Below are positions 1,176 through 25,550 of a stretch of DNA of 32,000 nt, piece by piece (the stretch's first letter is position 1; each line of letters begins with the position of its first letter). Below the pieces are notes generated by a model. That model saw only the letters and a list, made by a program, of their open reading frames with translations, did no database searches and had not been told where the DNA came from. Origin of the DNA: Candidatus Helarchaeota archaeon (GTDB taxonomy: Archaea > Asgardarchaeota > Lokiarchaeia > Helarchaeales > RDOG01); contig JALGVI010000003.1 in NCBI GenBank assembly GCA_029838215.1, forward strand, positions 53,350 to 85,349, written 5' to 3'. The translations under genes and the position numbers were made by a program.

Positions 1176-1209
1176 ACAATTAATATGTATCGTAAACGGA
1201 GATAAATTG

Positions 1210-1518
1210 ATGAAAAACATCGCCTCTCGCATCCACAAAGAATTAGAAGCAGACATTGAGGAATTCATGAAAGAAAGAGGGTTGGATAAATCGTCGGCAA
1301 TTAGAATAATACTACAAATAGGAATAGCCGAGTGGAAAAAAAACAGGGCAATTGAGTTATATAAGATTAAAAGGATTACTTTATGGAAGGCTTCTCAAAT
1401 GGCTGGTCTTTCTCTCAGAGAAATAATCGAAGAATTAAATCGCCGAAAAATCCCGATAAACGTTACAACTCAGGAAATTATTGAAGACATAAAAGCTGCT
1501 AGTGAGGCAGAATCGTAA
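1210..1518 (+). CDS. UPF0175 (COG2886)-type antitoxin-like DNA-binding protein
   Basis: The C-terminal half (AIELYKIKRITLWKASQMAGLSLREIIEELNRRKIPI) matches the UPF0175 HTH pattern, and the N-terminus looks ribbon-helix-helix-like. GGAG lies 9 nt upstream of the ATG at 1210; the ORF track starts at TTG 1207. The 3' end abuts or overlaps the PIN-like gene. Confidence 0.6.
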   Translation: MKNIASRIHKELEADIEEFMKERGLDKSSAIRIILQIGIAEWKKNRAIELYKIKRITLWKASQMAGLSLREIIEELNRRKIPINVTTQEIIEDIKAASEAES

Positions 1519-2074
1519 GTTGCAAAAAGCGAAGAAATCTAAAAAATCATTTATATTAAATGCCACTCCTTTGATATTTCTTTCAAAAATTGGTTTTTCA
1601 AGCATTTTGAATGAATTCAAAGAAGAAAAGTTCACGACTCCGTTAGTTAAAGAAGAAGTCGTGACTAAAAGAAAGGAAATTGGTGTCCCGGATGCGGTTG
1701 TCATCGAAGCAATGATAAAAAATGGCATTTTGAAAGTTAGGACACCGACACAAAATGATTTCATCAATGTATTAAGGCAAGTTCCAGAGCTCCACGAAGC
1801 AGAAATTCAAGTTCTTGCTTTAACAAAAGAAATTAATGGGATAGCGATCTTAGATGATACAGTCGCCAGACAAGCTGCCATTGTATTCGAAATTGAAGTT
1901 CATGGAACTGCATATTTACTTTTAAGACAATATTTCATGGGTTTTTTATCAAAAAAGCAAACAATCACTGCATTAAACAAGATGATTTCTGTTGGATGGT
2001 GGATTTCAGCTGGTGAATATGTGAAAATATTAGAAGAACTCGATGACGATGAATATATTCATAAAAATTTATAA
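1502..2074 (+). CDS. PIN-like nuclease of the COG2405/DUF3368 family (putative toxin partner of UPF0175)
   Basis: FILNATPLIFLSKIGFSSIL...TPLVKEEV fits the DUF3368 N-terminal pattern (DssPLI.L..i..l.lL...iP..V..Ev). HEAEIQVLAL and ILDDTVARQAA supply the further acidic residues expected of a PIN-like fold. The start is ambiguous: GTG 1502 overlaps the antitoxin by 17 nt, and TTG 1520 lies 1 nt after its stop. Confidence 0.6.
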   Translation: MRQNRKLQKAKKSKKSFILNATPLIFLSKIGFSSILNEFKEEKFTTPLVKEEVVTKRKEIGVPDAVVIEAMIKNGILKVRTPTQNDFINVLRQVPELHEAEIQVLALTKEINGIAILDDTVARQAAIVFEIEVHGTAYLLLRQYFMGFLSKKQTITALNKMISVGWWISAGEYVKILEELDDDEYIHKNL

Positions 2075-3199: not shown

Positions 3200-4361
3200 T
3201 ATCTTTCTTTCTTTTTTCAAACAATTGCCTAATTATTCTTTTGCTTTCAAATTGAAATGCTTTTAGAGTAGGTTTCGGGTCTGTCCACCACAAGTTCGAT
3301 TTTGTTTTCGGATTTAAACAATCAAGCAAGACATCCCAGATTGCTTTTGGATTGTCAATGACATGGATGGCTTCACCACTCAAAGGCCAATGATATCTTA
3401 AATTCACTCGATAGTCTTTTGAAAACGGTATATTTTTCCCCAAAGCATTATTGACTGCAAGCACGGGAAAATTGACTCCACTTGCTATTGCCAACTCCAA
3501 AGATCCCCAAAATTTGGCATTTATTTCCATTAAATAAAGTTGCTTGGTCTTGAAATCACGCTTGAATTCCACCATTGCGATCCCGTCCCATTGTAATGCA
3601 TCTAGGAGTTTTTTACCCGCTTCCATCAAATCTTCCTCATAGATGCTTTCTGCACAACAACTCGCGCCTCCTGATGCGGGAAATTCCCTAATCCTACGAT
3701 GCATGAAAATGCGCTTGCATTTTCCTTTCTGATACAAAGCAAAGAAACCACATCCCTGTCCACTGACATATTGCTGAATGAGTGGAAAATGCGTGTTAAA
3801 ACTCGGATCATTACCTATAGACTCTTCAAGACTCTTCAATAGGTGTTTTTTGGTCATTGCATAAATTGGCTTAGCTTTAAATAATTCATGCCTCCCTTTT
3901 ACCACGAGTGGAAATTTAAATTCATCCAAGTGATCCTTTACTTCTTCAATTGATTTTAAATCCCATGTTTTCGGCGCAGTAATGCCTTGTCTGATTGCGA
4001 GTGAAATCGTAGCAGATTTGTCAAAGCATTTTTCTAACTTGCTTAAAGAGGGAAATGGTAACCGTGCATGTTTTTCAATTTCTTTTTTGTATTCGGCAAG
4101 AAAATAAACCGACCGTCCGCCAATGGGTAAAATTACTTCATAATCTGATCGTTCAAGGAATTTAAGAAAATTTTTCAAGTAATTCTCATTGAAAAAGGAC
4201 TGATCATACGTGATTTTTGAAAAGAAACGTGAGAATCTCGTCAGGCTGTTTTTAAAACCAATGCCATCGACTTGGAACCCTGCTTTATTTAATGCACGTG
4301 CTGCTCCTAAAGCGTGCTTATAATTTGCATCCGTGATCAATACTTTTTTTCGTGTTGTCAT
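3192..4361 (-). CDS. ATP-grasp superfamily enzyme (COG3919-like), substrate unknown
   Basis: FPLVVKGRHE, LIQQYVSGQGCGFFALY and IAMVEFKRD..QLYLMEINAKFWGSLELAIASGVNFP form the ATP-grasp nucleotide-binding core pattern. The start lies 3 nt after the moaB stop. The 3' end overlaps the convergent HDAC gene by 8 nt. Confidence 0.7.
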   Translation of the reverse strand: MTTRKKVLITDANYKHALGAARALNKAGFQVDGIGFKNSLTRFSRFFSKITYDQSFFNENYLKNFLKFLERSDYEVILPIGGRSVYFLAEYKKEIEKHARLPFPSLSKLEKCFDKSATISLAIRQGITAPKTWDLKSIEEVKDHLDEFKFPLVVKGRHELFKAKPIYAMTKKHLLKSLEESIGNDPSFNTHFPLIQQYVSGQGCGFFALYQKGKCKRIFMHRRIREFPASGGASCCAESIYEEDLMEAGKKLLDALQWDGIAMVEFKRDFKTKQLYLMEINAKFWGSLELAIASGVNFPVLAVNNALGKNIPFSKDYRVNLRYHWPLSGEAIHVIDNPKAIWDVLLDCLNPKTKSNLWWTDPKPTLKAFQFESKRIIRQLFEKRKKDII

Positions 4362-15799: not shown

Positions 15800-19901
<4,102 letters not shown>

Positions 19902-20150
19902 TTTTTCTTCTCAACCGTTTAAAAATTCATTAATCAAATTAGAATTGCAGAGAACCCCTATCACGATTGGATTCTGGTGTTATGTGGAAAGGATTTTTCA
20001 GTGATGGGATGCGCGATCAACTCTTTAATTGATTAAAACTTTGAAAAATTCACTAAGAAGGGAATTAAGACTCACTAAAAATTATGGTTGCTCTTTAAAT
20101 TTCCATTGCGAAAATCTTTATAAATTTTTCGATAAGTTTCGGATGTTTTA

Positions 20151-21809
20151 TCAAATTGTCGGTTTTGGTTGCCTATCTGGTGGAAGTCCCGGCATTGGTG
20201 CTCCAGCATGCGCTTCTGGAGACATTAATTTTGCGGCAACAACATCATCAATTCGAAGAATCATTGAAGCCGCTTCAACCGCAGATCTAAGCTCTTGAAT
20301 TTTTACCCAAAGTGGTTCAATAACCCCTATCTCGAACATGTTTGCAATTTTCCCGTCATATAGATTAAGGGCAAGCCATTTACTTTCTGGATTTTCATGA
20401 GCTGCTCGCAATAATACCAAATTATCGATGGGATCGAATCCTGAATTAGTTATTAACGTTCGAGTAATGGCTTCGAGTGCATCACAATAAATTTCGATGG
20501 CTAGTTGCTCTTTCCCTCCGACCGTTTGAGCAAAACGGCGTATGTTCTTTGCCAATTCAACTTCTACGGAGCCACCACCTCCTAAAACTTTATTCTTTTG
20601 TAAAACATCAGCAATTACTGAGAAACCATCGTGTAGAGCTCTTTCTGCTTCATCAAGTAGATTATCCACTCCACCACGAAGAAGAACTGCCACGGACTTT
20701 GGATTTTTGCAACCCTCGATAAAAATAAACTTTTTGTTACTAACTAATCTTTCTTCTACTAACTCAGCCTCGCCCAAGTCATCTTCAACCAAATCATTTA
20801 TATCCGTTATAATCTTGCCTTGGGTGGCCATCTTGAGTTTTATCATTTCTTTCTTCTTAATCCTGCTGATTGCCATGATACCCTCTTGGAGCATGAATTC
20901 TTGGGCTATGTCATTAATTCCTTTTTGGCAAAAAACGATAGTTGCTCCTGTTTTTTTAATCTTGTCAACCATTCGTGCAAGGATTTCCTCTTCTTCATCA
21001 TGCAATGCTTTGATTTGTTTTATGTCCGTTATTCTTATTTGGGCATCAATTTTTGTTTTTTCAATTTCCAGCGGACAATCAATTAATGCAATTTTTGCAT
21101 TCACGATTTTTCTTGGCATTTCTGGATGAGCGATATTTTCTGCAATTATTGCTCCCTTTATGAGTTTAGTATCTGTCAGACTTCCTCCCTGACGTTTTTG
21201 GATCTGGATCCTTTCAACGTTCACTTGGATTTCAGTCCCGCGTGTTTCCTTAATGGACATAACGGCTTCCACGCAGATTTTTGCGAACCTATCCTTGACC
21301 GTTGAAACCGCTTTACTATTCAAGGAAGTCAAAGCTATTTTATGTAATATGTCCGTGTCTTTTTCAGGATCGATAGAAATGGAAATATCTTCAAGAATTT
21401 CTTCTGATTTTGAAAGAGCTTTTTTAAATCCTTTAACAATATGTGTTGGATGAACTTTCAAGTCAAGAAGGATTTCTGAACGCTTAAGCAGTTCTCCCGT
21501 CATGATCACGGCAGATGTAGTGCCATCCCCTACTTCATCATCCAAGGCTCTTGCTACTTCTACAATCATCTTCCCTGCTGGATGTTCTATTTCGAGTTCC
21601 TCAAGGATCGTGGCTCCATCATTTGTGATGACGATGCCTCCAAGTCGATCTACGAGCATTTTATCCATGCCGCGCGGTCCAAGCGTGCTTTTAACCGCTT
21701 CACTAATGACTCTGGCTGCTTTTATGTTTATTTTTTGGGCGTCTTGTCCTTCTACTCTTTTGCTACCTTCTTTTAATATCACTACAGGCTTGCCTGTTAA
21801 TTGTGTCAT
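20151..21809 (-). CDS. ths: Thermosome subunit (group II chaperonin, CCT/TCP-1 family)
   Basis: [22 protein letters not shown] and [10 protein letters not shown] are the TCP-1 signatures. Length 552 aa. Confidence 0.95.
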
Positions 21810-21819
21810 GCTTTTTTAC

Positions 21820-22185
21820 CTAAAAAATTGCAATGTCTACTTCATCATTTAGTTTAAATTCATTAAGATTTGTTGGCAAGATTATCTTTAGTGGAATACC
21901 ACCGATTAGAATGATTAACGTGCTCTGATCTTCTTGTTTTTCAACTGATTCTACTGTTCCATGACCAAAAAACTTTGCATTCTCATCGCTCAGTTTTTCA
22001 CTTTTTCTCGCAATTTTGAAATGAACGTCTTTAGTCGTATCAAAGGCAATTAATCGTTCCGGAGTATTTAATTTAATTTCAATTTTTTTCTCTTTTAATG
22101 AAAAATATAAAATTTTCATCTCTGCGGCTTTCGGTGTTTCGATTTTATCGACTTTTACTTTAATATCTAACAAAATTTCCACCAA
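21820..22185 (-). CDS. rpo8: Small OB-fold-like protein resembling RNA polymerase subunit Rpb8/Rpo8 (RpoG)
   Basis: The C-terminal half [50 protein letters not shown] aligns by eye with yeast Rpb8 [50 protein letters not shown]. Shared features are G-T, a hydrophobic run followed by GG, NLN, and a terminal hydrophobic strand. The start is TTG 22185 or GTG 22182. It lies 10 nt upstream of the thermosome gene. This rests on a recalled alignment, not a profile search. Confidence 0.5.
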
Positions 22186-22200
22186 AAATTGGTTAAAATA

Positions 22201-22677
22201 TTATTTTCTTTTTCGAAATTTTTCCATTTCTTCAATTTCGGCCTCTGCTCCAGGACCAAATTGCATTTTTTCAACGAATTTATTATAGACATTGCGCACG
22301 CTTTCAGCAAGAGGGCCCGAACCTTCTACTCCAAATTCCGTTACTTTAATTTTATTTAATACCATGATAGATCTTGCGTCTGGGAAATATTGCACTTGTC
22401 CTTTTGGAAATAATTTGGATATCTCCTCGGTCAAGGCCTGCAAGTCAAACCCTTTTGCTGTTTCTATAATTTCTAGAATATGTTGTCCATAAATAAAGAT
22501 TCTTTCAAATTCATTTCCTTCATCATCTTCGGCAGGCCCTAAACAAATGCTCATTTTTTGACGTTCCATTCCTAAGAGGGTACCGCTATATACTTTATTT
22601 GCAGTAATAACTTTAACTTCTGCATCAATTAATCCGGAAATTTCTCTAAAAAAACGCTGTTCTGAAGTTTGACTCAT
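22201..22677 (-). CDS. Sm-like (LSm) fold protein with an LSm12-type AD-like C-terminal domain
   Basis: The N-terminal Sm pattern is LIDAEVKVITANKVYSGTLLGMERQKMSICL...FERIFIYGQHILEIIE. The C-terminal LTEEISKLFPKGQVQYFPDARSIMVLNKIKVTEFGVEGSGPLAESVRNVYNKF resembles the human LSm12 AD region ([43 protein letters not shown]). A GGAGGT SD lies 6 nt upstream of ATG 22677; the ORF track's TTG 22695 start contains that SD. Confidence 0.6.
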   Translation of the reverse strand: MSQTSEQRFFREISGLIDAEVKVITANKVYSGTLLGMERQKMSICLGPAEDDEGNEFERIFIYGQHILEIIETAKGFDLQALTEEISKLFPKGQVQYFPDARSIMVLNKIKVTEFGVEGSGPLAESVRNVYNKFVEKMQFGPGAEAEIEEMEKFRKRK

Positions 22678-22724
22678 TTTCTTACCTCCAAACAATCATC
22701 AGGACGTATTTTTCCTGCTTTTTC

Positions 22725-24344
22725 TCAATTCTTAAATATTCTTTCAATTTTAATTTTTAAATGTTCGTGATTATCAAGAACAGTTCCGCTGGATTCGTAG
22801 TTCTTAACAACCTGTTGGAATAACTGCAATTTTATGTTATATTTGATAATATCTGGATCTTGAAAATCTTTTGGATCGTACAAGATTATATGGGAAAATT
22901 GATTTCGATAAGAATTCATGAAATTCTCAATGACCTGCAGGCTTCTAGAAGGTATTTGATTGCATAAATCCAGAGGATATTCATTTTGGATTAATGGGTA
23001 TGTACCTTGTAAATCCTCTAAAATGATCCCAAAAAGAGGTGAAACATGAGCGACTTGCACCAAATGTCTTTCTTTTTCTATTATTTCTTCAAGTATTTTA
23101 TTAACATATCTTTTAAATTTTAAATTCAAATCATTTAATGGGTATTCTGGGACTAATAGTAATACTGACCGTGCATTTAGCGATAGATTTTGCATTTTCA
23201 TTTGGTGTCGGCGAATCTCAGGTCGATCTAGAGATCCCGTGTCAGCGTAAAAAAAAGCCGTGCTTTTTGACGCAAGCTCATAGGGCTCAAGCCGTTCGCC
23301 ATACTTTTTCAAAATGTACCTGAATGCTTCTAATAATGCAGGGTGAGCACTCACCCTAGTCTGAACCAATTCCCAGATTCTACCTGTTCGAATTGCCTGT
23401 CTGATACTTTTTAATTCTTGAAAAGTCACGTATAAGTTGTGTTCTGCTATCAAGCATTGGCGCTCTTTTAAAGTCATCTTCAACAGTTCTTTTGGCTTAT
23501 ATTTTAGGCAAATGGGGCAGCTACAAGGGAACTCGTGGATTTTTTCCAGTCGTAAAGTTCCCATGTTTGTCAGGTATCGGTCGTTTTTTGCAAATAATGC
23601 ATACGCAGAAGAGTCAAATATGTCTGCTCCACAGGCAATGGCTAGAGAGAAAAACATGGGATGACCAATTGAGAAAGCATGAAGCGGTCGTGATTGAATC
23701 ATGCTAAGGCGTGCCACGATTATTTGTTCTGCGACCTGCTTGTAATTGTACGACATCAATGATGGTGCTAAAGTACCCAGCGGATGGTAATCAAATTCGA
23801 GTTCTGACATGAGTCTTGCAGATTTTTCTACCAAGTCAAGAAATTGTCCTCCTTGAATCGGTCCTGCCCATAAAATGCCCGAATCTTTTTGTCTCAAGTT
23901 TAATGCTTCGATACCGCGCCCATGTGTCGTCTCCACGCCCTTTTCTGCTTCTTCATGCGAATCGGTATCGGTAAAAATGTCCAGAATTGTCCCAATATCG
24001 GGTTTTAAGAGATCTTGGAATTCAACTATCTCTTGATTGGAAACTTCCAATTCTTCTCGATACATCCAACTTTGATATGCACCGGAATCAGTCATTATGA
24101 TACCATCATAGGAAATAAGGGAATGTACTCCCTTGGTTGCCTGTTCTCTCAGCTCTGGAGTATTGTAAATGATGTATGCATTAGTAATCAACCCATTCAT
24201 CCCAATCTTTTTCATCTCATTCGGAGTAATTAGAGGAATATTTGGGTTATAAACTGGCAATAGATTGGGCGTTTCGATAATGCCGTGTGCTGTTTTTAAC
24301 TTCCCTATTCGTGCAAGTCCATCTTTTTCGATAATCTCGAACAT
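22725..24344 (-). CDS. tgtA: Archaeosine tRNA-guanine(15) transglycosylase (ArcTGT), no recognisable C-terminal PUA domain
   Basis: The N-terminus FEIIEKDGLARIGKLKTAHGIIETPNLLPVYNP is typical. MTDSGAYQ is the catalytic Asp block. The Zn site is CSCPICLKY...AEHNLY. GGAG lies 7 nt upstream of ATG 24344; the alternative start is TTG 24356. Confidence 0.9.
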   Translation of the reverse strand: MFEIIEKDGLARIGKLKTAHGIIETPNLLPVYNPNIPLITPNEMKKIGMNGLITNAYIIYNTPELREQATKGVHSLISYDGIIMTDSGAYQSWMYREELEVSNQEIVEFQDLLKPDIGTILDIFTDTDSHEEAEKGVETTHGRGIEALNLRQKDSGILWAGPIQGGQFLDLVEKSARLMSELEFDYHPLGTLAPSLMSYNYKQVAEQIIVARLSMIQSRPLHAFSIGHPMFFSLAIACGADIFDSSAYALFAKNDRYLTNMGTLRLEKIHEFPCSCPICLKYKPKELLKMTLKERQCLIAEHNLYVTFQELKSIRQAIRTGRIWELVQTRVSAHPALLEAFRYILKKYGERLEPYELASKSTAFFYADTGSLDRPEIRRHQMKMQNLSLNARSVLLLVPEYPLNDLNLKFKRYVNKILEEIIEKERHLVQVAHVSPLFGIILEDLQGTYPLIQNEYPLDLCNQIPSRSLQVIENFMNSYRNQFSHIILYDPKDFQDPDIIKYNIKLQLFQQVVKNYESSGTVLDNHEHLKIKIERIFKN

Positions 24345-24359
24345 GTTAAACTCCAAGTC

Positions 24360-25550
24360 TCATTCTATGAATTCAAGGCGAGATAGATCATCGGGCAGTG
24401 CTCGACCGACTTTTCCACAGTGAAATATCTTTCCATCTTTTTCATATGCCACTATGTCTGCAGTAAAATCAAAGACACCCTTGAATAACGCACTACCAAT
24501 TCCAATTGAATCGAAAGGCACGTCTGCCTCTATGAATCTTTCTATTTTTTTTGCAGTGAAACCGCCTGAAACCACGATCTTGACCTTATCTCTCGTGAAT
24601 CCCTGTTCATCTAACACCTCCCGAACATTATTGACGAGCACGGGATTCACCCCTGTTAGCTTTTCGTGGCTCCATTGCTTCTTATTGATGATGGAATAAT
24701 CTACTAAAGTTCCCGAAGTATCTAATCTAACTCCCCACAAAGATAATCCTTCTTTTTCGAATGCAAGGGCAACCTTAAGAGCCGTTTCGGCACAATTATT
24801 TTCAAAATCGACCAGGGATATGCAATTCACTTCGGGATGGGTTCTTGCGAACCATAATGTTGCCTCGACTGTTGCATCATCCCAGCACCCTTCTATTTCT
24901 CCCGGTTTAAAAAAAGCAATGAGTGCATGAGGAATTGTTCCAAGTGGTTTTCCACCCCACCACTCCTGCTGAGCGGGTGTACTTCCTCCTAATGCTCCCA
25001 CGAGATTTCCCGCAAGACCGTCAAGATATTGCGTGCTGTAGAGGTCAAACCTTGCAGGGAAAAACAATACAGGGATGTTTTTTTTGGAGGCTGCTTCAAT
25101 GACGGTCCTAGTATTCGTGGCAACCTTGGTACCTCTAGCAATAATCCCTAAATAAACTGTCTCGAGCTCGATAAAATTCGAAAGGCTCCCTTTTATCGTC
25201 AGGACCGTTTCGCCAGGCGAAATAATGTCTCCATCATAAAGTGCTTTTATTTCAACAGGTCCTCTTGCACATGCTTGAATTATCCTGATTGCATAATCAA
25301 TTCCACATAACACTGCTTCTCCGCTTTCGTGTCGAGAAAATACGTTCATTATCAAGGTAGGATCGTAATCGGGGGTTTTCTTTTGAAATTTTTCGATGAC
25401 CTGGCGAGATCTTGTGAAATAGACATCTGTAAAGAAACCATTTCTCAATAATGCCAGTTCTTCCTTACGAATATTAAATACACGAGCAGGCAATCTACCA
25501 CTTGGACTTCGATTCTTGTTTAACGTCTTGCTTGCCAAAATTACCACCAA
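24360..25550 (-). CDS. Nicotinate phosphoribosyltransferase family protein (archaeal type II PRTase, COG1488-like)
   Basis: FFTDVYFTRS is the N-terminal block, and the TIM-barrel region includes GTIPHALI and RLDTSG. No ATG is available in frame. Candidate starts are TTG/GTG 25550/25547, or TTG 25493, which would give MPARVFNI... Confidence 0.8.
   Translation of the reverse strand: MVVILASKTLNKNRSPSGRLPARVFNIRKEELALLRNGFFTDVYFTRSRQVIEKFQKKTPDYDPTLIMNVFSRHESGEAVLCGIDYAIRIIQACARGPVEIKALYDGDIISPGETVLTIKGSLSNFIELETVYLGIIARGTKVATNTRTVIEAASKKNIPVLFFPARFDLYSTQYLDGLAGNLVGALGGSTPAQQEWWGGKPLGTIPHALIAFFKPGEIEGCWDDATVEATLWFARTHPEVNCISLVDFENNCAETALKVALAFEKEGLSLWGVRLDTSGTLVDYSIINKKQWSHEKLTGVNPVLVNNVREVLDEQGFTRDKVKIVVSGGFTAKKIERFIEADVPFDSIGIGSALFKGVFDFTADIVAYEKDGKIFHCGKVGRALPDDLSRLEFIE

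Follow-up and report, generated by a model that had tools for sequence, protein, structure and literature searches.

Within the 32,000-nucleotide stretch of DNA from a Candidatus Helarchaeota archaeon that we analysed (hereafter the window), the short open reading frame at 21820-22185 on the minus strand very probably (about 93%) encodes Rpo8, also called RpoG, the archaeal orthologue of the eukaryotic RNA polymerase subunit Rpb8. This identification is supported by a family profile, an Rpb8 fold, a Gly-Gly turn, presence in single copy, and a conserved gene neighbourhood. Counted against it are an NCBIfam score far below cut-off, the lack of a match to the eukaryotic Rpb8 model PF03870, an unusually fast divergence, and a homologue that lies elsewhere in a related genome (G001). 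We consider the annotation rpo8/rpoG safe for this gene. A preliminary description of the window had put the ORF forward as a candidate Rpb8/Rpo8, and this is borne out by a Pfam score above threshold, by matches in profile searches, and by the Rpb8 fold of the predicted structure. The gene and its surroundings, all on the minus strand, are organized as follows:

24360..25550, minus strand: phosphoribosyltransferase-family gene (QRPTase_N; Pfam PF02749, 8e-13), first in the co-oriented block
22725..24356, minus strand: archaeosine/queuine tRNA-ribosyltransferase (arcTGT; Pfam TGT, 7.1e-75), conserved upstream of the Sm gene
22201..22695, minus strand: two-domain Sm protein (Lsm plus Lsm_C, SmAP3 type; Pfam Lsm_C, 3.1e-17)
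22179..22183, minus strand: GGTGG resembling a Shine-Dalgarno (SD) motif, read from the sequence, 5 nt upstream of an alternative rpo8 start (TTG 22173)
21820..22185, minus strand: rpo8/rpoG, the very probable Rpb8 orthologue; maximal ORF of 121 aa from TTG 22185, stop codon at 21820-21822
20151..21809, minus strand: thermosome (group II chaperonin; Pfam Cpn60_TCP1, 8.5e-169), downstream of rpo8 in relatives too
17082..19901, minus strand: rpoA' (Rpo1N), 939 aa, with 78% identity to the ORF next after the thermosome gene in the related Candidatus Helarchaeota genome Hel_GB_A
15800..17080, minus strand: rpoA'' (Rpo1C; Pfam RNA_pol_Rpb1_5, 1.9e-55)

The preliminary description saw no obvious family for this protein, which is incorrect, as Pfam recognises it directly. 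The RNA_pol_RpbG model (PF16992) matches the ORF with 34.2 bits (E 2.9e-8), above its gathering threshold of 27, and the match spans residues 7-112 of 121 and model positions 3-108 of 119. When the genome was searched in six frames with PF16992, the same ORF was recovered (33.6 bits), and a 99%-identical protein in the databases already carries a precomputed PF16992 assignment. The NCBIfam equivalog model for RpoG (PRK14980) gave a weak match (E 1e-3, 19.2 bits, against an equivalog cut-off of 167), and we did not file the ORF under it because, in our judgement, this model is geared to proteins closely related to the crenarchaeal ones. The eukaryotic Rpb8 model PF03870 did not match the protein at E ≤ 10, short of the Pfam cut-off, and matched its relatives at 0.006-0.009, likewise below cut-off. 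The homology to Rpb8 is carried by the family profile and by the fold, not by PF03870.

Detection of the wider family required profiles, because the family is sparsely sampled and fast-evolving. A word-based homologue search with the single protein retrieved only the 99%-identical copy, and an exhaustive phmmer search of 1.8 billion representatives yielded just six relatives at E ≤ 1e-3, the closest being 62% and 47% identical. One metagenomic relative (P0005) is 44% identical over residues 1-86 and has an unrelated C-terminal part devoid of the Gly-Gly motif, so that this gene call probably contains a frameshift or is chimeric. When the single sequence was run with phmmer against PDB sequences, Sulfolobus Rpo8 ranked first at a non-significant E of 0.06. 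A profile built from 19 family sequences reached S. acidocaldarius Rpo8 (1.5e-9), S. shibatae Rpo8 (1.4e-7), S. pombe Rpb8 (6.2e-7), S. solfataricus RpoG (1.8e-6), and Komagataella Rpb8 (2.7e-4), and among solved chains no match other than Rpo8/Rpb8 was obtained below 0.01. An earlier version of the profile, made of 11 sequences, also matched solved Rpo8/Rpb8 chains. Comparison with the Rpb8 family and with the RNA polymerase chains of the PDB, which the preliminary description had envisaged, thus leads to solved Rpo8 and Rpb8.

The predicted structure agrees with this assignment. The AlphaFold2 model, computed from an alignment of 19 relatives, has eight beta-strands, with a pLDDT of 91.6 and a pTM of 0.84, and its predicted fold is an Rpb8-type OB-like beta-barrel across the whole protein. 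Foldseek ranks 1-45 are all occupied by Rpb8 chains of polymerases I-V or by Sulfolobus Rpo8 (TM 0.72-0.84). In VIA-align, all 50 PDB entries listed are Rpb8/Rpo8: the model superposes on S. pombe Rpb8 with a Z-score of 17.1 (119 of 121 residues, rmsd 2.1 Å) and on S. acidocaldarius Rpo8 with a Z-score of 16.0 (116 residues, rmsd 2.2 Å). The expectation that the protein would fit the OB-like fold of Rpb8 is confirmed by these Z-scores of 16-17, and the modelled fold is equally close to Rpb8 and to Sulfolobus Rpo8.

The diagnostic feature of Rpb8/Rpo8 is a pair of glycines located between strands 7 and 8 (Koonin et al. 2007, PMC2234397). In the window protein, G95-G96 sit in the turn between model strands 87-94 and 97-104, and align with the S. 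pombe segment SFGGLL. G96 is invariant in the 19 relatives, and the G95-G96 pair in an alignment of five sequences. Both glycines of the turn are kept in Helarchaeales, as in eukaryotic Rpb8; in the aligned Sulfolobales sequences the corresponding residues are Y/F-G. The C-terminal pattern on which the preliminary description relied holds only in part. All of its motifs are present, that is G74-H-G76-T77 followed by 12 residues, the hydrophobic strand L90-I94, G95-G96, N106-L-N108, and the terminal strand V116-F121. However, only G76 and the glycine doublet are kept among relatives, with no conservation of G74, T77, or NLN in those aligned.

The start of the gene is probably not that of the maximal ORF. 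In relatives and in Sulfolobus Rpo8, the first residue aligns with position 5 of the 121-aa frame, and GGTGG lies 5 nt upstream of TTG 22173; for these two reasons TTG 22173 is the likelier start, and the product would probably be 117 aa rather than 121 aa long. A GTG at 22182 is a further candidate. Use of an SD motif in this cluster is plausible, because GGAGGT precedes the ATG of the Sm gene at 22677 by 6 nt. The longest ORF of the Sm gene starts at TTG 22695, but the first residue of its homologues corresponds to ATG 22677, so that a shorter form starting there is likely.

The assembly to which the window belongs (3.62 Mb in 170 contigs, 94% complete, 6% contamination) contains exactly one PF16992 match and one match to the family profile, and both correspond to this ORF. 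A search of the same genome with PF03870 gave no match. A better Rpo8 candidate elsewhere in the genome, which the preliminary description had considered a potential objection, was therefore sought with all three models and none was found. Members of the Rpb8/Rpo8 superfamily occur as one copy per genome, without paralogues (PMC2234397), as is the case here.

Genomic context provides an additional line of evidence. In Crenarchaeota, rpoG is usually paired with an Lsm-type gene (COG1958) (Koonin et al. 2007, PMC2234397), and in Sulfolobales this rpoG-linked Lsm-type gene adjoins a queuine/archaeosine tRNA-ribosyltransferase gene (PMC2234397). The arcTGT-Sm-rpo8 trio is thus common to the window and to Crenarchaeota, so that the context itself counts as evidence for orthology. 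We found the arcTGT-Sm-rpo8 order in the window and in five relatives, and the Sm gene lies upstream of rpo8 in every Helarchaeales locus examined. Only 15 nt separate the Sm gene stop (22201) from rpo8, and 10 nt separate rpo8 from the thermosome ATG (21809). These tight gaps suggest a shared transcript for the Sm gene, rpo8, and the thermosome gene.

Downstream of the thermosome gene, a 249-nt spacer (19902-20150) is followed by rpoA', rpoA'', and a gene for a NusA-type KH protein. Reading the spacer by eye for archaeal promoter and terminator signals, we observed several oligo-T tracts and a TATA-like TTTTTAAA box near 19925, located about 20-27 nt before the rpoA' ATG. These T-rich tracts and the box make it probable that rpoA' has its own promoter, and suggest that it is expressed as a separate transcript with a short leader, with termination after the thermosome gene. 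The location given in the preliminary description is accurate: rpo8 lies 10 nt upstream of the thermosome gene, and rpoA' starts (19901) 1.9 kb downstream of rpo8. It had also been remarked that rpoH and rpoB are missing from their normal place upstream of rpoA', and we located them on other contigs of the assembly (rpoB on C93 and rpoH on C86).

The RNA polymerase genes of this genome are in fact spread over three contigs, with rpoA' and rpoA'' on C112 (the contig inside which the window lies) and rpoB as a 1133-aa open frame. The genes are thus not arranged in the usual rpoH-rpoB-rpoA' cluster, and the thermosome gene here precedes rpoA'. The rpoH product (Rpo5; 1183-1740, plus strand of locus L019 on C86) is 185 aa long and consists of an N-terminal restriction-endonuclease-like domain followed by Rpb5_C (3.2e-27). 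The N-terminal domain matches Pfam Mrr_cat (E 1.1e-4, above cut-off) and NA-iREase1 (5.6e-6). We take this Rpo5 to resemble the two-domain eukaryotic Rpb5 and not the short archaeal RpoH.

Concerning conservation within Helarchaeales, PF16992 scores above cut-off in four of the six other genomes of the order, and the family profile finds matches in five of the six. The arcTGT-Sm-rpo8-thermosome order is identical in four other Helarchaeales genomes, and in Hel_GB_A the whole block is conserved from the phosphoribosyltransferase gene through rpoA'. Identity between the window and Hel_GB_A is 78% for RpoA', 55% for the thermosome, 53% for the Sm protein, 46% for arcTGT, and 25% for Rpo8 (4001-4354 of locus L015 in Hel_GB_A); no other well-assigned gene of the block evolves nearly as fast as Rpo8. 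The poorly characterised phosphoribosyltransferase-family gene at the head of the block occupies the same position in Hel_GB_A and is about as diverged as Rpo8 (26% identity). Rpo8 has been reported to be highly variable (PMC13257274), and the 25% identity fits this report.

Genome G001, of the same family as the genome under study, carries a divergent Rpo8-like ORF (1474-1956, minus strand of locus L024; profile E 4.8e-7) that keeps the motif as SIGGL, is not recognised by Pfam, and lies outside the Sm-thermosome context. If an upstream GTG start is real, its N-terminus is extended by a tail of some 35 residues rich in lysine.

In two sister families of the same class, f4 (67 genomes, possibly Lokiarchaeales) and f5 (7 genomes), neither PF16992 nor PF03870 nor the Helarchaeales profile matched credibly, and many of these 74 genomes (G007-G080) are 98-100% complete. 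Over 81 genomes of the class, PF03870 gave sub-threshold matches only, all of them on rpo8 genes already found. A weak profile match in G054 (E 4e-4, with two stops) is antisense to a large hydrolase-like ORF, and we dismiss it as noise and not a decayed rpo8. A hidden rpo8 beside SmAP3 was sought in three of the five f4/f5 genomes probed, and no candidate ORF of at least 70 aa follows the Sm gene there, though a shorter or strongly diverged gene may have escaped notice. Across the phylum, PF16992 matches at E ≤ 1e-3 occur in 17 of 151 genomes, concentrated in a few families. Because Rpo8 evolves fast, the result for f4 and f5 is to be read as not found rather than absent: either the gene was lost or it has diverged to an extreme degree.

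The closest characterized counterparts are the Rpo8 proteins of Sulfolobus/Saccharolobus (PDB 7ok0 chain G, 2waq chain G), which share with the window protein the Pfam family PF16992, the size, and the fold, as well as a neighbourhood that likewise includes an Lsm-type gene and arcTGT (PMC2234397). They differ from it in sequence (about 20-22% identity in structural alignment); in addition, the Helarchaeales gene precedes the thermosome gene and rpoA', and its product scores below the NCBIfam equivalog level. The best structural match is eukaryotic Rpb8 (RPABC3; S. pombe 8qsz/3h0g chain H). Eukaryotic Rpb8 is 145-150 aa long, compared with 121 aa here, and in most cases contains long inserted loops that the window protein lacks, with gaps in the Foldseek alignment; moreover, it serves three polymerases, compared with one here. 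Finally, two homologues already bear the NCBI name 'DNA-directed RNA polymerase subunit G [Candidatus Helarchaeota archaeon]'. Helarchaeota Rpo8 in databases and in the literature belong to the same lineage and protein family and probably share the gene order; however, they are only 23-27% identical to the window protein, which falls in a separate, sparsely sampled family.

The preliminary description restricted Rpb8 orthologues to Crenarchaeota, Korarchaeota, and some related lineages, a view that is outdated since they have been reported in Asgard archaea including Helarchaeota (PMC10307638; PMC13257274; NCBI names). RPB8 was reported in several Asgard phyla in 2023 (PMC10307638), and a 2026 paper finds Rpo8 across Promethearchaeati (PMC13257274). 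In the latter study, a Helarchaeota Rpo8 (MHA1266732.1) was modelled together with Rpo1 (MHA1266734.1), Rpo5, and Rpo6. The two accessions are two apart, a numbering consistent with the order rpo8-thermosome-rpo1. According to the same authors, Asgard and Thermoproteota Rpo8 mostly cannot be connected by PSI-BLAST, and detectable similarity to Rpb8 is confined to the Asgard proteins (PMC13257274); in our searches, the crenarchaeal RpoG model and Sulfolobus Rpo8 were better matches to the Helarchaeales proteins than eukaryotic Rpb8 was.

Could the protein have left the polymerase? An Rpo8-derived barrel that is no longer a subunit might instead work with its operon partners, binding RNA alongside the Sm protein, for instance, or acting as a chaperonin-associated factor. 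The tight position of the gene, 15 nt from the Sm gene and 10 nt from the thermosome gene, would fit such a role, but Sulfolobales show the Sm-rpoG linkage too, and their RpoG has been defined biochemically as an RNAP subunit (PMC2234397) and is visible in solved RNAP structures (PDB 7ok0, 2waq). The very fast divergence relative to RpoA' also speaks for this reading, but has been reported as normal for Rpo8 (PMC13257274), and the Gly-Gly turn and the whole fold are retained. Many related Asgard genomes apparently do without a detectable Rpo8; in the present one, however, this is the sole Rpo8-like gene, so that the polymerase would otherwise have lost the subunit. We consider this scenario improbable.

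A far smaller chance still attaches to convergence, in which a small ligand-binding barrel of generic OB or Mop-like type, without relation to RNA polymerase, would have come to resemble Rpb8. The first non-Rpb8 Foldseek matches are indeed molybdate-binding ModG/ModE domains (ranks 46-49), but at TM 0.36-0.39 and an rmsd of about 13 Å, compared with TM 0.8 and 2-3 Å for Rpb8/Rpo8, and the link to Rpo8/Rpb8 also emerges from sequence profiles by themselves (E 1e-9 to 1e-7); together, the Pfam score above cut-off, VIA-align, and the family-profile matches effectively refute it. That a short frame with a non-ATG start in AT-rich DNA arose by chance is refuted by homologues with conserved position and fold-determining pattern in several Helarchaeales families and in metagenomes, as well as by the confident AlphaFold2 model; the ORF is a real gene.

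The product is an all-beta protein of about 13.8 kDa with the predicted fold of an OB-like barrel. Rpb8 docks on the pore module of Rpb1 (PMC2234397), and by homology, with the solved structures 7ok0 and 2waq as reference, Rpo8 is expected to dock on the pore-1 region of Rpo1N/A' beside Rpo6, at the periphery of the RNA polymerase, and to act as a structural or assembly subunit. Its physical incorporation into the polymerase is inferred.

Rpb8 was long considered the sole eukaryotic core RNA polymerase subunit missing from archaea. That Asgard archaea possess it favours an archaeal ancestor of eukaryotes with a polymerase of 12 subunits, as already published (PMC2234397, PMC10307638, PMC13257274). 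Since Rpo8 is already described and annotated in Helarchaeota, the present finding is correct and ordinary: the window contributes one more, rather divergent, Helarchaeales Rpo8, and shows that the Sm/arcTGT neighbourhood of Crenarchaeota is also retained in an Asgard lineage. More speculatively, and with the odds against it, arcTGT-SmAP3-rpo8 might be an ancient neighbourhood of Sulfolobales (Thermoproteota) and Helarchaeales (Asgard), kept through a functional coupling of Rpo8 to Sm-mediated RNA handling at the polymerase surface, with Rpo8 lost or unrecognisable in f4. If this is true, the polymerases of closely related Asgard archaea differ in subunit composition.
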